Source: an uncultured Bacilli bacterium
GTDB lineage: Bacteria > Bacillota_I > Bacilli_A > RF39 > UBA660
Reading direction: 5' to 3'
NCBI GenBank assembly: GCA_944363785.1
Contig: CALVVF010000003.1
Coordinates: 7,011-71,010 of the forward strand
Length of the DNA stretch: 64,000 nt
Shown: positions 7,464-45,644 of the stretch, one piece after another
Numbering within the stretch: position 1 is the stretch's first letter
Layout: the number at the start of each line of letters is the position of its first letter
The notes under the pieces: model-generated
Told to the model about the DNA's origin: nothing
Seen by the model: the letters and a program-made list of their open reading frames with translations, nothing else
Database searches by the model: none
Made by a program: the position numbers and the translations under genes

Positions 7464-7517
7464 TTCTATTCCCTCTTTCTTATTTTCAATTCGATTGGTT
7501 TTATCTTACTACTCATA

Positions 7518-7544
7518 TTAGCAAATGTCAATATAGAGTGCTAA
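7518..7544 (-). promoter_or_regulatory. CIRCE-like inverted repeat (TTAGCACTC-N9-ATTTGCTAA) overlapping the htpG promoter
   Basis: On the minus strand the site reads TTAGCACTCTATATTGACATTTGCTAA. A TTGACA -35 lies inside the spacer, followed 17 nt later by TAAGAT. Confidence 0.6.
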
Positions 7545-7637
7545 AAAAATAGAAATAATTTCTTCGCTTCGTTATTATCTATCATTTTTATCTAATTCGT
7601 TTATTAACAAAAGAAATTTACTTTTACAGTATAAATA

Positions 7638-8312
7638 CTAATCCATAGTATGATAATATTCAATTACACTATTGGTAATAATTTTAGCTAATTGTTCTTG
7701 GTATTCATCTGTTTGTAATAAATAACGTTCATTGGCATTGGACATGAAACCACATTCAATTAATACACCTAAAACTGTAGTATTTTTATACATATAAAGA
7801 TCTGTTTTCTTTAAAGATCTTTTCGTTTTTAGTTCTGTTTTAAAATTTTTCATTAATATTTCCCCAAGTACTTTATTCTGGGGATTGATTTCATTGTAAA
7901 GTACTTCAGCCCCATTCCAACTAGGATTACGGTAGTGATTAATGTGAATAGATAGATACATTTCTGCATGATATTTCTTATACATCAATATGCGACGATA
8001 GAGATCTCCCCGCTTTTTTCTATCATCCCATTCACTAGATAAATCCGTATCTGTTTCTCTTGTCATATAGACAATTGCCCCTTTTTCGCTAAGCTTATTT
8101 CTTAGCTTTTTGGATATCTCTAAAGTTATATCTTTTTCCAGTATTTTTCCATACATCGTTCCAGGATCTCTGCCTCCATGTCCAGGATCTACAAATATTA
8201 TTTTTCCTAATAAGGGTAATTCTTCACTTATCGCACTAGCTTTGGGATAAAAACCGAGAAGAAGTACTAAAATTAAGGTTAGAATTGCTGCAAAAACTAA
8301 TCTTTTCTTCAT
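7638..8312 (-). CDS. N-acetylmuramoyl-L-alanine amidase (Amidase_3, CwlD-like) with signal peptide
   Basis: IFVDPGHGGRDPGT is the Amidase_3 zinc motif, and the N-terminus is a hydrophobic signal peptide. Confidence 0.8.
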   Translation of the reverse strand: MKKRLVFAAILTLILVLLLGFYPKASAISEELPLLGKIIFVDPGHGGRDPGTMYGKILEKDITLEISKKLRNKLSEKGAIVYMTRETDTDLSSEWDDRKKRGDLYRRILMYKKYHAEMYLSIHINHYRNPSWNGAEVLYNEINPQNKVLGEILMKNFKTELKTKRSLKKTDLYMYKNTTVLGVLIECGFMSNANERYLLQTDEYQEQLAKIITNSVIEYYHTMD

Positions 8313-8518
8313 CTTCTAGATCACCTAATAAAGTATATGTTTTTTTATTTAAAGTAAGATAATCTTTTTTTTATCAATAGCTATACGTGAATTTGTTTAT
8401 TAAAGATTACCATTAATCAAAATTATGGTTTTATAGTTTTAGCAGCAAATACCTATTTTATATGAACTACCTTTCTTGGATTTTTCTATCATTTATCTTA
8501 TACTATCTATTCTCTATA

Positions 8519-8578
8519 TTTTTTCTATTTTTTCTTATTTTCATCCTTTAACTAAGCAAATTCCTAGTATATAAAAAA
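8519..8578. repeat. about 60-bp repeat, copy 1 (near-identical to 39890-39940)
   Basis: The two copies share TTTTCTATTTTTTCTT(A/G)TTTTCA(T/G)CCTTTAACTAAGCAAATTCCTAGTATATAAAAAA with only two mismatches. Confidence 0.8.
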
Positions 8579-8624
8579 GTAACATACCTTTTTGGATATG
8601 CTACTTTGAATTATACATTGAATT

Positions 8625-8873
8625 TTAATCTCCACCAAAAATATCAAATATCTCTCCTAGAAAAGACTCTCTTTTTCTTCCACCTTCTCGATAATTATCT
8701 TTGTCTTTCTTACTTTTTTGTGGAGTTGTTTCTTCTCTTTCTTCATGGTTCATTAGCTTTTCTAATTCACCACGATCTAACCAAATTCCTCTACATTCTG
8801 GGCAATAGTCAATTTCAACACCACGTTTTTCAGACATTAATAATGTTACATCTTTACATACTGGACATTTCAT
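8625..8873 (-). CDS. zinc-ribbon (zf-TFIIB-like) domain protein
   Basis: It has paired CPxC motifs (MKCPVCK..DYCPECRGIWLD). The start is set at the ATG 8873, which has the RBS GAGGAGG; the track ORF had a 20-aa extension. Confidence 0.65.
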   Translation of the reverse strand: MKCPVCKDVTLLMSEKRGVEIDYCPECRGIWLDRGELEKLMNHEEREETTPQKSKKDKDNYREGGRKRESFLGEIFDIFGGD

Positions 8874-9089
8874 ATTTTTCCTCCTCTGTTGTATTATATC
8901 ATATTCTTTATTTTTAAGTAATTTTCTTTCCAATCTTCTATCATTTTTTTCCTATTCATTCTAAATTATAAACTATCTTTCTAATAAGTAGGTATCTACT
9001 AAAAAGGAGAACAACTTTTAATATTCGTTTTTCGCATAAAAACAAGTATGCATGATTGGCATACTATAGAATATTGAATGGTGATAATG

Positions 9090-9323
9090 ATGCAAAGACT
9101 TCGTGATTTACGGGAAGATAAAGACCTAAAACAAAAAGATTTAGCTAATTTTTTACACTGTTCGCAAACTACTTATTCTAGATATGAGAATGGTAAACTT
9201 AGTGTACCAATCGATGTATTAAAAAAGTTGGCTACCTTTTATCATGTTAGTATTGATTACCTAACTGAATTTACTGACGTTAAGAAACCTTATGCTAGAA
9301 AGAATGTCGATAAAGATATTTAA
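9090..9323 (+). CDS. XRE-family HTH transcriptional regulator, paralog A
   Basis: It has an HTH_3 domain (LRDLREDKDLKQKDLA..SQTTYSRYENG) and the RBS GGTGAT. Its promoter and leader are duplicated ahead of paralog B. Confidence 0.8.
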   Translation: MQRLRDLREDKDLKQKDLANFLHCSQTTYSRYENGKLSVPIDVLKKLATFYHVSIDYLTEFTDVKKPYARKNVDKDI

Positions 9324-9331
9324 TTATATCT

Positions 9332-9538
9332 TTATTTTTTTATACTTAATTCTTCTTCTAGTATTTGATTTAATTTTTCATAGTAATAGAATAGTAATTT
9401 TTCCATTTTAAGCAAATACTGTTCATCTTTTTTCTTCGAGAGATAGAAGCGTTTCTGATATATTTTCAGCTTTATCTCTTTTATTTTTTCTTCTAATGGG
9501 CAAATAACGTATTTCATATATAATGTGGCATATTTCAT
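9332..9538 (-). CDS. hypothetical small protein (68 aa), divergent from XRE paralog B
   Basis: The ATG at 9538 has the RBS AGGGGGAAAA. The product is Lys/Glu-rich with no recognisable domain. Confidence 0.35.
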   Translation of the reverse strand: MKYATLYMKYVICPLEEKIKEIKLKIYQKRFYLSKKKDEQYLLKMEKLLFYYYEKLNQILEEELSIKK

Positions 9539-9630
9539 AGTTTTCCCCCTATTCAATTTTATTTTATGCTTATTTGGCATATATGTCAATATGCGACATT
9601 GGTATATTATAGAATGAAAATGGTGATATT

Positions 9631-9858
9631 ATGAAGAGATTACGTGATTTGAGAGAAGATCATGATTTACCGCAACGTAGTATTGCCAAAATGATCAACT
9701 GTTCTCAAACTACTTATTCTAGATATGAAAATGGTAATCTAAATGTACCAATCGAAGTTTTAAAAAAATTAGCACTCTTCTATCATGTCAGTATCGATTA
9801 TCTAACTGAATTTACTGATGATAAGAGACCTTATACTAAAGCTACTAATAGAAAGTAG
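9631..9858 (+). CDS. XRE-family HTH transcriptional regulator, paralog B
   Basis: It is about 70% identical to paralog A and has the same upstream motif TTGGYATAYTATAGAAT..GGTGAT. Confidence 0.8.
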   Translation: MKRLRDLREDHDLPQRSIAKMINCSQTTYSRYENGNLNVPIEVLKKLALFYHVSIDYLTEFTDDKRPYTKATNRK

Positions 9859-9940
9859 CTTTTTATATTGTGAGTTTATCATCTTCTCTTTAGTCAGGCA
9901 AGGAAATTACAAAATTTTCTATTGTCAAAAATTGTAATTT

Positions 9941-9967
9941 TTAGCACTCACTATTGACAACTGCTAA
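9941..9967 (+). promoter_or_regulatory. CIRCE-like inverted repeat (TTAGCACTC-N9-AACTGCTAA) overlapping the hsp20 promoter
   Basis: A TTGACA -35 lies inside the spacer, followed 17 nt later by TAATAT. Confidence 0.6.
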
Positions 9968-10007
9968 AATAAGTGGTAATATGGAATCATGAAAGGAAGG
10001 ATGATAT

Positions 10008-15059: not shown

Positions 15060-15719
15060 TTATCCTCCGTAAATTATCATAAATACAAGTACCGCAATAT
15101 GAAATAAAAGATAGTTCGTATCCCACTTTTCCCAAGTTGGTTTTTCAATATAAGTTCGTTTACTTGTATAATTATAGAATCTAAGTTGGTTAATTTCCAT
15201 TAGATCACGAATTTCATGTTTAGTCTTTGCATAAGCTTTCTTCAATGAAAAACGAATATAAAAGAAATCTTTTTCAATTGCATAATCTTCTCGTAAATTA
15301 TCAAGAAGTCGCATATTCTTTTTTAAATAACGGAAGAAATAGATGATATAAAGAATATGGTAAGTAATTTTTTTACTTTGAAATTTATATAAGGTTACTT
15401 CTAATATATACCGTAGTTCTGAAGAATCCGTTACTTTCTTAATTAACATGATATATTCCATAAAGATAATGAATTTAGTTATCCCCATAAACTGTGGATA
15501 AAAAGTAGTTAAAATAGAAAGAAGTACTCCAAATATCCCCACTTTGGAAATAAATTTAAATTCTAAAGATAAGAAGCATAAAACAACACTAATCAATACA
15601 ATTAAAGCTGAAGAATGTAGAAATAGTAAAGAGACAATAACTAAAAGTGATGAGATTAGTTTACTAATAATATTTACTTCATAAAGAAGAGAATCTTTCT
15701 TAAACATGTTTATACACAT
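15060..15719 (-). CDS. ecfT: putative ECF-transporter transmembrane component EcfT (divergent, short)
   Basis: It is a polytopic membrane protein in the conserved ecfA1-ecfA2-ecfT-truA position. It lacks the usual Ala-Arg-Gly coupling motifs. Confidence 0.45.
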   Translation of the reverse strand: MCINMFKKDSLLYEVNIISKLISSLLVIVSLLFLHSSALIVLISVVLCFLSLEFKFISKVGIFGVLLSILTTFYPQFMGITKFIIFMEYIMLIKKVTDSSELRYILEVTLYKFQSKKITYHILYIIYFFRYLKKNMRLLDNLREDYAIEKDFFYIRFSLKKAYAKTKHEIRDLMEINQLRFYNYTSKRTYIEKPTWEKWDTNYLLFHIAVLVFMIIYGG

Positions 15720-33244: not shown

Positions 33245-33366
33245 TTTGAATCCTCCCTTCGCCTATATCTAGTATAGACATGCTCCGTGTAAATAACCTG
33301 ATTCCAGTTAACAACTTAACCCGGTGTATCAGCAACCTTACACATCTAAGCAGCCACACGCCTAAG

Positions 33367-37593: not shown

Positions 37594-37630
37594 AAGAAAA
37601 GGTGTAGCTTTATAGGTTACACCTTTTATT
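37594..37630. terminator. bidirectional hairpin between GNAT (+) and spo0A (-)
   Basis: AAAGGTGTA-N11-TACACCTTT. Confidence 0.5.
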
Positions 37631-38399
37631 TACAGTAATCTTTTTGAAATTCCAATCGTAGTTTGTCAGCGACAGTAACAATGAATTCGGAATTGGTTGG
37701 TTTGGCTTTATCAATATCGACACTATGGCCAAATATCTCTTCCATTAAATCCCAATCCCCACGATTCCAACTCACCTCGATCGCATGACGAATGGCTCTT
37801 TCGACCCGAGAAACGGTCGTATTAAATTTTTTCGCAATATCTGGATATAATTCCTTGGTAATGCCACCAATTACTTCTGGTCGCTCATAGAGAATAGAAA
37901 TTCCTTCTCTGATATATTGATATCCCTTTATATGGGATGGTATTCCTAATTCATGTAATATTTTAGTAATCGAAATCTGTAAGTTATTATGGTAAATATC
38001 GATTGAAGCATTGCTGTAGGTTTTACTATCGGTACAATCTTCTATTCTTCGTTCTAGATCAGATAATTCAAACGGCTTTAAGATGAAATAATTAATTCCA
38101 TACTCAGATACTCTTCTAATCATCTCTTGTGCATTATAAGATGTTAGTACAATTACCTTCTTATCGATCTGTTCTTTTCTCATACTCTCTAGGATAGAGA
38201 GTCCATCTTTTTTCGGCATAATCAAGTCTAAGATGATGACATCATACTCGTTTTGCCTTGTTTTAATTAATTCTAAACCTCTTTCTCCATCATTTGCTTC
38301 TAATACTAATTCGATATTAGCGTGATCTTTAAAGTACTCCTTAATCATGCTTACTAGGTCGACATTATCATCGATCATCAGTACTCTGACTTTATTCAT
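37626..38399 (-). CDS. spo0A: sporulation master regulator Spo0A (receiver plus Spo0A_C)
   Basis: The receiver has [12 protein letters not shown]. The C-terminus [58 protein letters not shown] is diagnostic of Spo0A. Confidence 0.9.
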
Positions 38400-38525
38400 A
38401 TTTTCTCCTTTCGTACTCCACGCAAGTATTATTATACACTATATTATTACAAATAGATACAGTGAAAATTGTAAGCTTTTGTCAAATGATGTCGAGTATG
38501 AGAAAATAACCATATAAATTCTCAT

Positions 38526-38556
38526 TTTAGAACAAAATGAAAAATCAATTTTTCAT
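38526..38556 (-). terminator. rho-independent terminator after the tnpB 3' structured region
   Basis: On the minus strand it reads ATGAAAAAT-TG-ATTTTTCAT followed by TTTGTTC. Confidence 0.55.
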
Positions 38557-38700
38557 GTCCCAGTCGTTGCCTCCTGGGCTTTCTGCTTCATAGATAAAGT
38601 AACCTTTATTCTCCACAGACTTAACATCCGATAGTCGCTACCGTAGTTTTTTGTTCTTATTTGTTTTCTATTTTTTCTATATGAATTCTTTCATATACAT
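38557..38700 (-). ncRNA. candidate TnpB-associated omega-RNA (reRNA) scaffold derived from the IS right end
   Basis: This is a GC-rich segment in an AT-rich genome. It has hairpins, including GCCCAGGAGGCAACGACTGGGAC, and sits at and just beyond the tnpB 3' end, ahead of a terminator. Confidence 0.3.
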
Positions 38701-39816
38701 CTTTATTCCTTCAAATAATATATTCATACTAGCATTAATATCTCTATCATGATAACTTCCACATTCTGGACATAGCCAATTTCTAACTGATAAATCTTTT
38801 ACTTTCTCATTTTTATACCCGCATCTACTACATTCCTGACTACTCGGATAATAACTATCTATCTGAATGTATCGTTTTCCATAATACTTAGCTTTATATT
38901 CTAATATACGACATATCTCAGATAAACTGACATCAGTTAGATATTTAGAAAACTTCTTTTCTTCGATCATCTCTTTTGCCTTTAATGTTTCACTTACCAC
39001 AATATCATTTTCTAATACTAGTTTTTTCGTTATTTGATGAATAAAATGTTTTCTCGCATTCTTTAACTTCTGAAATAAAATGGCTAACTTTCTCTTCGTT
39101 TTATAGTAATTACTACTTCCTTTTTCTCTCCTGGATAATTCTCTTTGTTTCCTTTTTATTCTTTTTTCATATTTTTCTATGATTTTCTCATTCTTTACCT
39201 TTTCACCATCACTTGTAATCACAACATCTTTTATTCCTAAATCAATTCCTACTATAGTTTTAGGAATAATTTTTGGCACGATATGATTTACCTCTACTAA
39301 TACACTAGCATAGTACTTACCACTTGAATTCTCGCTAATCGTCGCATTAATTATTCTTCCAGGTAAAGTTTCTAAATTCCTATATCCTCTAATCTTTACT
39401 TCTTTTAATTTAGGAAGAATAATCACTTTTCTTTTTAAATCTACTCTAATATTTTCATACCTTTTTTCTTTATAATTATTCGTAATATAATTCGTTCGAT
39501 AACTTCTTTTAGAACTATACTTTCCTTTAAATTTTGGATAATTTGTTTGTTTATGAAAATAACGTTTAAATGCATCATCTAAATCAAATAAACTACATCT
39601 TAAACTACAAGAGTCCACTTCCTTTAAAAATGGATATTCTGAATATAAATTAGGTAAATCTTTAATCGTATCAAAACAAGTTGTATTTTCTTTTTTTCTT
39701 TTTTCAAGATAGTAATTATAAACTAGTCTTGTACAGCCAAATGTTTTTTGTATCATAATGATTTGTTTATCATTTGGATAAAGACGAAATTGGTAACTTT
39801 TATACATCATACTCAT
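38677..39816 (-). CDS. tnpB: IS605-family TnpB (OrfB) RNA-guided endonuclease, lone
   Basis: The N-terminal OrfB helix-turn-helix region is present (SYQFRLYPNDKQ). RuvC-I is GIDLGIKDV. The zinc ribbon is CSRCGYKN..CPECGSYHDRD. RuvC-III is DINASMNI. There is no adjacent tnpA. Confidence 0.85.
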   Translation of the reverse strand: MSMMYKSYQFRLYPNDKQIIMIQKTFGCTRLVYNYYLEKRKKENTTCFDTIKDLPNLYSEYPFLKEVDSCSLRCSLFDLDDAFKRYFHKQTNYPKFKGKYSSKRSYRTNYITNNYKEKRYENIRVDLKRKVIILPKLKEVKIRGYRNLETLPGRIINATISENSSGKYYASVLVEVNHIVPKIIPKTIVGIDLGIKDVVITSDGEKVKNEKIIEKYEKRIKRKQRELSRREKGSSNYYKTKRKLAILFQKLKNARKHFIHQITKKLVLENDIVVSETLKAKEMIEEKKFSKYLTDVSLSEICRILEYKAKYYGKRYIQIDSYYPSSQECSRCGYKNEKVKDLSVRNWLCPECGSYHDRDINASMNILFEGIKMYMKEFI

Positions 39817-39889
39817 GTCTATCCCTCCCTGTTGTGAATGGTTAATAGGAGTTTATCAAACAAATGTACGCAAGTCAAGTGGATTATAA

Positions 39890-39940
39890 AATTTTCTATT
39901 TTTTCTTGTTTTCAGCCTTTAACTAAGCAAATTCCTAGTA
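39890..39940. repeat. about 60-bp repeat, copy 2 (upstream of tnpB, downstream of the tpiA-coupled small gene)
   Basis: It is near-identical to 8519-8578. Confidence 0.8.
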
Positions 39941-39987
39941 TATAAAAAAAATGTCTTGGATTATCCAAACAAAAAGAATCACTGTTT

Positions 39988-40149
39988 TTAGCGATTCTTG
40001 GATAAAGCTTGAGAAGCCATAGCAACGATTAATAGTATTACAACCATAATCATAATCCATAAAAGTGGACTGTCATAATGACTCTCAAAAAAGTTTTCCA
40101 ATTCTTTAAAGCTTCGATCTAGCCAATCAAATAGTGCATTCCCTATCAT
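39988..40149 (-). CDS. small tail-anchored membrane protein (53 aa), translationally coupled to tpiA
   Basis: Manual translation gives MIGNALFDWLDRSFKELENFFESHYDSPLLWIMIMVVILLIVAMASQALSKNR. Its ATG overlaps the tpiA TGA as ATGA, and the GGAGGAAGAAG in the tpiA 3' end serves as the RBS. Confidence 0.5.
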   Translation of the reverse strand: MIGNALFDWLDRSFKELENFFESHYDSPLLWIMIMVVILLIVAMASQALSKNR

Positions 40150-40862
40150 ACTTCTTCCTCCATTTTCTCTATTATTACTCGCAATTTTTCTATATCCAGG
40201 CTTGTACCTCCAATTAGATAACCATCTATATTAGGCACTTGATTTAATTCATCGATATTATTTATAGATACACTACCACCGTACAAGACTCGGCAAAAAA
40301 TTTGATATTTTTTATGGACATAATCTTTAATCATTTGAGTAATCGTCGTAATTTCTTCTGTTGTGGGGATTTTTCCTGTTCCAATTGCCCAAATAGGTTC
40401 ATAAGCAATGATTACTTGATCTAAGTTTACTTGATTAGTGAAAGCACTATCAATCTCATTCATGAGAATGTTTTCACGGTCGTTAATTTCTTCTTCTTTT
40501 TCTCCTATACATAAAACGGGCACCATGGCATTTTCTAAAATTAATTTTACTTTCTGATTAATCATCTCTTCTGTTTCATTTAGAATATTTCTTCGTTCGG
40601 AATGCCCGACAATAACATATTTAACATTCAGTGATTTTAATTGCTGGATGGCAATTTCTCCCGTTAAGGCACCCATATTGCGATCGGCTACATTTTGGGC
40701 TCCTAGGGAGTAATTAACTTGATTTTGAAAATAGGGAAGATAGATACTACTAGGACAAAATACTAGTTCATTACTTGATTTTAACGTACTTATTTGGTCT
40801 ACATAGTTTTCTATTTCTTTCTTAGTTAAATTCATTTTGTGATTACTTATTATCCACTTCAT
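40146..40862 (-). CDS. tpiA: triosephosphate isomerase
   Basis: The motifs GHSERR and AYEPIWAIGTGK are present. The ATG at 40862 has the RBS AGGTGA; the track start was GTG 40871. Confidence 0.9.
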   Translation of the reverse strand: MKWIISNHKMNLTKKEIENYVDQISTLKSSNELVFCPSSIYLPYFQNQVNYSLGAQNVADRNMGALTGEIAIQQLKSLNVKYVIVGHSERRNILNETEEMINQKVKLILENAMVPVLCIGEKEEEINDRENILMNEIDSAFTNQVNLDQVIIAYEPIWAIGTGKIPTTEEITTITQMIKDYVHKKYQIFCRVLYGGSVSINNIDELNQVPNIDGYLIGGTSLDIEKLRVIIEKMEEEV

Positions 40863-42087
40863 CTTTATCACCTTTAATTTTATCTACTATTTTTCCGATT
40901 ACACCTAAACGATTACTCTTATGTTTTATCGCATATGTATATACATCTAATACAGACTCAGCAAAATATTTTGAACTGTAGCGTTCAGAATTAATTCTCG
41001 CTTGTTTAGAGAGTTTACCTACTTGTTTTTTATCTTTATATAATTCTTTAATAATTTCTTTACATTCTTTTTTGGTCTTAAAAATTCTACCATTTAGTCC
41101 ATCAATTACCACATTAGCAAAGCTTTCATCGTCAATACAGATTGGTGTTACTTCTGAGGCCATTGCTTCAATTACTGTTAATCCTTGTGTTTCTGAATGA
41201 GAGGCAGTTAAAAAAATGTTTGCTAAATGATAATAGTATGGCATTTCTTCCCATTTTGCCTTTCCCGTCATGATAACATGTTCTGACAAGTTTTCCTTTT
41301 GGATATATTCCTGATATTCTTCCATATCTGGTCCATCTCCAACGATCAATAATTTTAGTTTTGGACAGCTAGGAATTAAATCTTTTACTACTTCCATTAG
41401 AAAGACGATATTTTTTTCTTGGGCTAAACGTCCTACGAAAATAGCTACAAAATCATCATCTTTTAGGCCTTGGTTTTTTCTCAATTTTGCTAGTTTACTG
41501 GCATCTATGTTTTCTTGATAAAACCTCTCTAACTCTATTCCCGTTGGGATAATATGAATATTCTTATCTACTTTGTATTTTTCTTTGAATAGATCATAAG
41601 TTTTCTTAGTAGGAACAATTAACTCACTAGCGGTTTTATCGCAATAAAATAGTGTTAAATATTCGACAATCTTTTTACTAGACTTATTGAAATATCCTTT
41701 AGTCACATAATGAATATAATCTTCATACATCGTATGATAAGTATGAACTAAAGGAATATCTAATTGAAAAGCCAAAAGTCTAGCAAATGTACCTATCGCA
41801 AATTCAGTTTGAGAATGAATAATATCTAAGTTCCAATTCTTAATAATATTCACAGCTTTAATCGGATAGATAGCTGTCAACCTAGAATCATAGATTCCTG
41901 TTGGGATACCGGGTATACGTAAGACATGTTCCTTCTCATCATAATCATAGTGAAAGCTTTCCAAGTTAGCTGTGACTACATATACTGTATGTCCCAATTT
42001 TTCCAAGGCCTCTTTTAACATTACTTCACTTGTGACTAAACCACTAATATAAGGGGTATAAGTTTCTGTAAAAATTCCTATTCTCAT
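40843..42087 (-). CDS. GT4-family glycosyltransferase (glycolipid/diacylglycerol glycosyltransferase-like)
   Basis: It has the GT-B fold with an EX7E-type C-terminal region (SHSETQGLTVIEAMA). It overlaps the upstream gene by 4 bp. Confidence 0.7.
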   Translation of the reverse strand: MRIGIFTETYTPYISGLVTSEVMLKEALEKLGHTVYVVTANLESFHYDYDEKEHVLRIPGIPTGIYDSRLTAIYPIKAVNIIKNWNLDIIHSQTEFAIGTFARLLAFQLDIPLVHTYHTMYEDYIHYVTKGYFNKSSKKIVEYLTLFYCDKTASELIVPTKKTYDLFKEKYKVDKNIHIIPTGIELERFYQENIDASKLAKLRKNQGLKDDDFVAIFVGRLAQEKNIVFLMEVVKDLIPSCPKLKLLIVGDGPDMEEYQEYIQKENLSEHVIMTGKAKWEEMPYYYHLANIFLTASHSETQGLTVIEAMASEVTPICIDDESFANVVIDGLNGRIFKTKKECKEIIKELYKDKKQVGKLSKQARINSERYSSKYFAESVLDVYTYAIKHKSNRLGVIGKIVDKIKGDKDEVDNK

Positions 42088-45547: not shown

Positions 45548-45628
45548 TTTTCCACAGAAATTGAGGATAATTTTTATTTTTTCCACAGATACTCGTTCGT
45601 ATTTACTAAAATTTTATTTTTATCCACA
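45548..45628. promoter_or_regulatory. three direct DnaA-box-like repeats (TTTTCCACA, TTTTCCACA, TTATCCACA) upstream of the gap promoter
   Basis: The boxes are at 45548-45556, 45579-45587 and 45620-45628, 31 and 41 bp apart. The third matches the consensus TTATNCACA exactly. Confidence 0.5.
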
Positions 45629-45644
45629 GTTTTTGGGGATAACT

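Follow-up and report, generated by a model that had tools for sequence, protein, structure and literature searches.

The repeat and its two surroundings

The window, by which we mean the whole 64,000-nucleotide stretch of DNA that was analysed, carries the same short sequence at two distant places. At the first, the order of features on the minus strand is a zinc-ribbon gene (8625-8873), a terminator hairpin (8607-8576), the repeat and an Amidase_3 (CwlD-like) gene (7638-8312). A distance of 47 nt separates the zinc-ribbon stop (8625) from this copy (8521-8578), and a further 209 nt lie between the copy and the amidase start downstream of it (8312). At the second place, the order on the same strand is tpiA (40146-40871), a tpiA-coupled gene encoding 53 aa (39988-40149), hairpins, the repeat, tnpB (38677-39816) and spo0A (37626-38399). 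The copy here (39892-39949) is located 39 nt beyond the end of the 53-aa gene and 76-133 nt ahead of the point where tnpB starts (39816, minus strand). Because the neighbouring genes are all on the minus strand, we read the repeat on that strand as TTTTTT ATATACTAGGAATTTGCTTAGTTAAAGG(A/C)TGAAAA(T/C)AAGAAAAAATAGAAAA.

A repeat search of the window gave a direct repeat of 58 nt, with 56 of the 58 positions identical (97%). Its 34-nt core has two exact occurrences in the window, and no match to it turned up in 100 shuffles that preserved dinucleotide composition. When about 320 nt around each copy were aligned, the similarity began and ended abruptly, and the flanks were unrelated on both sides. 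A preliminary description of this DNA had reported a near-identical direct repeat in the same orientation with two mismatches, had called its flanks unrelated and had placed it between the genes named above, and all of this was borne out. It had located the two loci correctly but not their ends, since the copies start at 8521 and 39892 rather than at 8519 and 39890, and the second ends at 39949 rather than at 39940. Both copies were present at the same places in metagenome contigs of the same species, with identical sequence across these contigs, and are therefore fixed.

The tnpB element, its ends and its relatives

The tnpB gene encodes a protein of 379 aa with the Pfam domains HTH_OrfB_IS605, OrfB_IS605 and Cas12f1-like_TNB (59-80 bits). 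The protein scored 307 bits against NCBIfam guided_TnpB (cut-off 100) and 405 bits against IS200_TnpB, just below the cut-off of 425. It aligned over its full length to the ISDra2 TnpB structures 8H1J and 8EXA (E ~2e-70), and the alignment keeps IDLG, SE and RDINA, which hold the catalytic Asp, Glu and Asp. The HTH, RuvC (OrfB_IS605) and zinc-ribbon domains of TnpB and an intact D/E/D triad are thus all present. An exact look-up of the protein sequence gave no match. Membership of the IS607 family was rejected, since IS607_TnpB reached 166 bits against a cut-off of 350 and no recombinase gene lies inside the element of 1,414 bp. No tnpA was found inside the element, within the window or next to any copy; with none in the element or the window, the element was classed as tnpB-only and non-autonomous. 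A frameshifted IS200-type Y1 transposase gene was seen on one related metagenome contig (L033, 1397-1908), 1.6 kb from an LE copy, and no left end (LE) or right end (RE) of the tnpB element adjoins it.

An exact 22-mer of the repeat was absent from the species-representative genome set, and the species of the window therefore lies outside that collection. A scan of the same genomes with TnpB yielded 16 loci encoding proteins 85-91% identical to that of the window, all in MAGs of uncultured Bacilli from the gut, among them 'Ca. Scybalousia intestinigallinarum' and UMGS592. As is expected of repeated DNA, the element is present in at least 10 copies in one related MAG, and contigs of the species to which the window belongs break off within it. 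When metagenome contigs were scanned with a 23-mer of the LE, 29 loci were obtained, which together with the earlier ones provided 28 distinct left flanks.

The LE copies were sorted by BLAST, tblastn and profile searches. The LE leads into a tnpB 83-88% identical to that of the window in two copies in L034 and in L037, L042, L049 and L054, and into an internally deleted tnpB in L033 and L053. In L055 it is followed by a sister tnpB of 54% identity, and the same type of LE is present in L031, L046, L047 and L050. Some other LE copies are intact up to the contig end. Lone LE stubs of about 37-58 nt, with no tnpB downstream, were found in L036, L040, the L041 group and L057 as well as at 8521-8578 of the window, and account for about 5 of the 28 distinct sites. 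Decay of tnpB itself was also seen: a one-base frameshift in an A-run is shared by two contigs of the window's species (L023, L024 ~3400), and internal deletions of several hundred bp occur in L001 (~400), L017 (~280-300) and L033 (~3690).

The left boundary of the element is sharp. In six full or 5'-intact relatives from three MAGs, and in both copies of the window, the likeness starts exactly at the junction between a T-run and ATATACTAGG, and the sequences upstream are unrelated. The 58-mer is composed of this flanking T-run and positions 1-52 of the LE. The right boundary is equally well defined, as 13 of 14 aligned regions downstream of tnpB are common up to ...GGGACATGAAAAATTTATTTTTCATTTTGTTC, share the identical terminus ...CATTTTGTTC and then diverge into their flanks; the fourteenth, L016, is truncated at its end. 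From the LE and RE alignments, the 28 flanks and the profile matches, a complete non-autonomous IS200/IS605-type element of 1,414 bp (LE, tnpB, RE) was delimited at 38530-39943 on the minus strand. Its LE comprises 127 nt (39817-39943), of which the first 52 (39892-39943) are the second copy of the repeat, and includes a promoter-like TTGACT-17-TAAACT with TG at 39878-39850. Its RE comprises 147 nt (38530-38676). The LE start ATATACTAGG and the RE end CATTTTGTTC are not complementary, and the ends are therefore asymmetric and without terminal inverted repeats. Target-site duplication is absent, since left flanks end in a T-run and right flanks are unrelated. The first 19-20 nt of the LE (ATATACTAGGAATTTGCTT) are invariant across sub-lineages and the remainder drifts; to judge from this pattern, the invariant part is most likely what TnpA would read for cleavage at the junction of T-run and LE.

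An allele of the tpiA-spo0A spacer lacking the element is predicted to read ...CCAAGACATTTTTTT(T) joined directly to TAAAATGAGAATTTATATGG.... No empty-site allele was present among all fetched loci, and apparent empty-site signals were artefacts of long T-runs. The T-run was ascribed, not with certainty, to the host terminator rather than to the element, because right flanks do not begin with T-runs; with no empty-site allele among the fetched loci, its assignment to target or element stays provisional. One candidate for the empty site, L003, was rejected because its tpiA is only 42% identical and its spacer has diverged, so that it does not define the junction. On this Logan contig (positions 1-850), Spo0A is 100% identical to that of the window, tpiA and the small upstream gene are very different, and the resemblance to the window sets in within the spo0A promoter, which marks either a recombination boundary or an assembly chimera.

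Within the RE, a block of 117 nt (38530-38646, minus strand) is about 90% conserved in 16 copies, more than the adjacent 3' end of the coding sequence. It ends in an 8-bp hairpin followed by TTTGTTC, and this hairpin, 7 nt from the end, is kept in the 16 copies. RNAalifold predicted 35 pairs in the block, and at only one of these did a compensatory exchange occur, three copies having G-C in place of A-U. The conservation and the fold fit a candidate omega-RNA scaffold, for which the flank just 3' of the RE (TAAAATGAGAATTTATATGG, 38510-38529, minus strand) would serve as the guide part, as predicted from the mechanism of the family. In the LE, no stable subterminal fold was found in the lineage of the window, and hairpins of 6-9 bp were recognised by eye in sequences of the sister lineage. 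Rfam gave no meaningful match for LE or RE at gathering or permissive thresholds.

We conclude that the 58-mer is very probably the outer tip of a tnpB-carrying element of the IS200/IS605 family, retained as a working LE at 39892-39949 and as a dead stub at 8521-8578. The suggestion that it might be an IS605-family left-end fragment is thereby supported, as the terminal 52 nt of the LE are nearly always followed by tnpB. Many copies standing apart from transposase genes would have spoken against an IS end; the motif is instead tied to tnpB at most sites, the exceptions being the few lone stubs.

The element is most like tnpB-only members of the family (IS1341 type; ISGst of Geobacillus stearothermophilus, ISDra2 of Deinococcus radiodurans). 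It shares with them the three TnpB domains, sharp ends with neither terminal inverted repeats nor target duplication, a fixed short motif at the LE, a conserved structured RE ending in a hairpin, as expected for an omega-RNA, and the presence of many copies, most without tnpA. The tnpB-only, non-autonomous condition is the commonest state in the IS200/IS605 family according to Meers et al. (bioRxiv 10.1101/2023.03.14.532601). The element of the window differs in that it is flanked by at least six T rather than by a mixed TAM of 4-5 nt (TTGAT, TTCAT), its LE hairpin is weak or absent, and a partner tnpA was not found in the window or beside the copies. It is thus an undescribed element of a familiar kind, accompanied in the window by one of its relics.

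In mechanistic terms, the tnpB-only element would depend for its movement on a Y1 TnpA supplied in trans from another locus, with the T-run acting as the putative target or TAM. The stub would represent a second copy of the same lineage, of which the T-run and positions 1-52 of the LE are left; the promoter of tnpB, tnpB itself and the RE are gone, most likely through a deletion with one endpoint at an A-rich 15-mer described below. For annotation, these results mean that the repeat is to be recorded as an IS200/IS605-type left end, once in a full element and once in a relic, and not as a regulatory motif. The exact boundaries, the T-run as candidate TAM and the candidate guide may also be used in mining for compact TnpB nucleases.

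The lone stub at 8521-8578

The stub proper comprises IS positions 1-52 (ATATACTAGGAATTTGCTTAGTTAAAGGATGAAAATAAGAAAAAATAGAAAA, 8521-8572, minus strand) and is identical to the LE of the full element at 50 of 52 positions. It matches the LE profile at positions 1-56 only (E=1.5e-7) and has no promoter-like site, no tnpB and no right end. The segment TTAGTTAAAGG.TGAAAA.AAG is shared by the stub and the resident LE and differs in copies from other species; on this ground and on that of the 50/52 identity, the stub derives from the same local lineage.

The similarity ends right after a 15-mer, AGAAAAAATAGAAAA (minus strand). This 15-mer lies in both LE copies (8521-8535 and 39892-39906) and occurs a third time at 38664-38678, overlapping the tnpB stop codon, in agreement with an earlier remark that a short motif recurs at the tnpB 3' end. 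The window holds three exact and two one-mismatch matches to it, against 0.4 expected when up to one mismatch is allowed. In the related copy L017, the truncation falls on the other side of the 15-mer from that of the stub. The flank of L017 gave a 23-nt match to hsp20 (E=0.022), which was too weak to use.

The DNA around the stub is specific to the lineage. A block of about 640-680 bp, corresponding approximately to 8385-9027 of the window, contains the zinc-ribbon gene, its terminator, the stub and a further 130-170 nt. This block has no counterpart in relatives with amidases of 85%, 78% and 74% identity; they keep the LytTR regulator, hsp20, the XRE genes and the amidase, and have neither the zinc-ribbon gene nor the stub. 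BLAST of 8340-8521 against all fetched loci found no IS-derived or other match after the stub. Since the DNA after the stub is matchless and the block is absent from the nearest relatives, deletion in place and import are both candidate origins. It is possible, though we hold it to be somewhat unlikely, that the stub is an IS left end that arrived already truncated, together with the zinc-ribbon block, by recombination, or that it is an aberrant or one-ended product of TnpA. The absence of the block from these relatives, the truncation of L017 at the other side of the same 15-mer and the existence of four further stubs of 37-58 nt are all compatible with such an origin. However, no donor locus for the block was found, and the stub follows a terminator T-run as normal insertions do, which fits ordinary insertion followed by decay.

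Far less probable is the reading in which 8521-8578 is the left end of a complete and still mobile MITE or PATE, with a right end of its own before the amidase gene. Gene-less PATEs with IS605-type ends are documented (bioRxiv 10.1101/2023.03.14.532601), and the stub is like the PATEs and MITEs derived from IS200/IS605 elements in being short, gene-less and bounded by an authentic LE terminus; the 130-170 nt of lineage-specific DNA after it would also leave room for a second end. However, a profile built from 14 right ends and run without speed filters found a single RE in the window, the one beside tnpB, and neither an ...TTTTGTTC end nor the RE hairpin was present between 8313 and 8520. The segment after the stub matched no other fetched locus. 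PATEs and MITEs need both ends, and a stub without an RE should therefore be immobile. Of the earlier proposal of a MITE-like remnant, the remnant stands and the MITE does not.

We give hardly any credence to the last alternative, that the 58-mer serves the host in cis-regulation or as a small RNA (as a promoter, operator, terminator module or sRNA) and adjoins tnpB by coincidence. Each copy does have a terminator on one side and the next gene of the same strand on the other, and the sequence is invariant across same-species metagenome contigs, but in other genomes tnpB follows from this start point at more than 20 unrelated sites, and the nearest relatives keep the amidase and its conserved proximal upstream sequence without the 58-mer. 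Nothing over either copy reached an Rfam gathering score. A weak match to SpF11_sRNA at 8573-8650 (23.9 bits against a threshold of 54, E=0.17) covers the terminator and the 3' end of the zinc-ribbon gene and touches only the T-run of the 58-mer. The fold energies of the single-stranded DNA were no better than those of shuffles (on the minus strand, z was +1.3 for the first copy and -0.3 for the second; on the plus strand, the copy at 8515-8585 gave +1.4), and no sigma-70-like pair of hexamers lies inside the 58-mer. With no Rfam match, stable fold or promoter hexamers, the earlier idea of a shared regulatory or RNA element was given up in favour of a transposon end.

Several other features of this part of the window may be recorded. 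The sequence at 9870-9930 (minus strand) resembles LE positions 41-97, with AATAGAAAATTTTGTAAT, a -35-like TTGCCT and then TGATAAACT (LE profile, E=0.003). The match at 9895-9924 was considered as the missing half of the stub and rejected, because relatives free of the IS have this site too, between the XRE gene and hsp20. In some of these relatives it forms a perfect palindrome (ATACAAAATTTTGTAT), and we regard the site at 9870-9930 as a probable promoter or operator of the host. An inverted repeat of 52 nt (79% complementary) joins 7496-7547 upstream of htpG with 9938-9989 upstream of hsp20; inside it lies TTAGCACTC-N9-GAGTGCTAA, which we take to be the CIRCE/HrcA operator consensus. Two paralogous genes of XRE-family HTH proteins (9087-9297 and 9628-9838) share 77% DNA identity, and a small minus-strand ORF (9332-9589) lies between them. 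In one metagenome strain (L027, 3700-6249), an insert with an AAA_21/DUF4435 gene and a Mob_Pre relaxase gene interrupts the amidase gene after codon 47.

Placement of the element after terminators

Both copies in the window stand behind hairpins and T-runs. The intrinsic-terminator hairpin of the zinc-ribbon gene (8576-8607, minus strand; 13 pairs in the predicted fold) lies directly 5' of the stub, and the T6 run at 8573-8578 is both the tail of this terminator and the T-rich site adjoining the transposon, the IS boundary within the run being ambiguous. The full LE is flanked by a T8 run (39944-39951), a candidate target site or TAM, which follows two hairpins downstream of the 53-aa gene. 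The same arrangement was seen elsewhere. All 28 distinct left flanks end in T6-T9, and in about 24 of them the T-run is directly preceded by a hairpin, in the shape of an intrinsic terminator; the flanks counted were those of the window (8573-8607 and 39944-39999), of L006-L014 (~1330-1366) and of L030-L058. Over the 30 nt that precede the T-run, the fold energy had a median of -4.8 kcal/mol, compared with -0.5 kcal/mol at 53 control sites (Mann-Whitney p = 1.4e-5), the controls being a small set of intergenic T5+A sites, all from one window.

A literature search found no paper reporting terminator targeting by IS605-family elements. Group IIC introns insert just after intrinsic-terminator hairpins. 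The placement described here is likewise directly downstream of a terminator stem-loop and in the same orientation as the upstream gene, but the mobile element and its chemistry are entirely different from those of the TnpB element. As a lead, the placement could simply reflect the use of T-runs as targets together with selection that favours harmless sites; alternatively, the structure of the terminator itself may be recognised. A stronger version, in which this IS lineage recognises the hairpin and T-tract in single-stranded DNA and the stubs at five independent terminators are a regular by-product rather than decay, seems doubtful to us. If terminators were indeed recognised, the element would insert where it is harmless, and the post-terminator placement may represent a safe-site targeting habit of the element family.

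Two observations concern the window outside these loci. A 28-nt inverted repeat, 96% complementary, has its arms 30 kb apart at 15477-15504 and 45617-45644, and each arm contains TTATCCACA, presumably the DnaA-box consensus. An S10-Clostridia ribosomal-protein leader at 33259-33356 (minus strand, 40.9 bits) is the sole Rfam match above its gathering score in the window.
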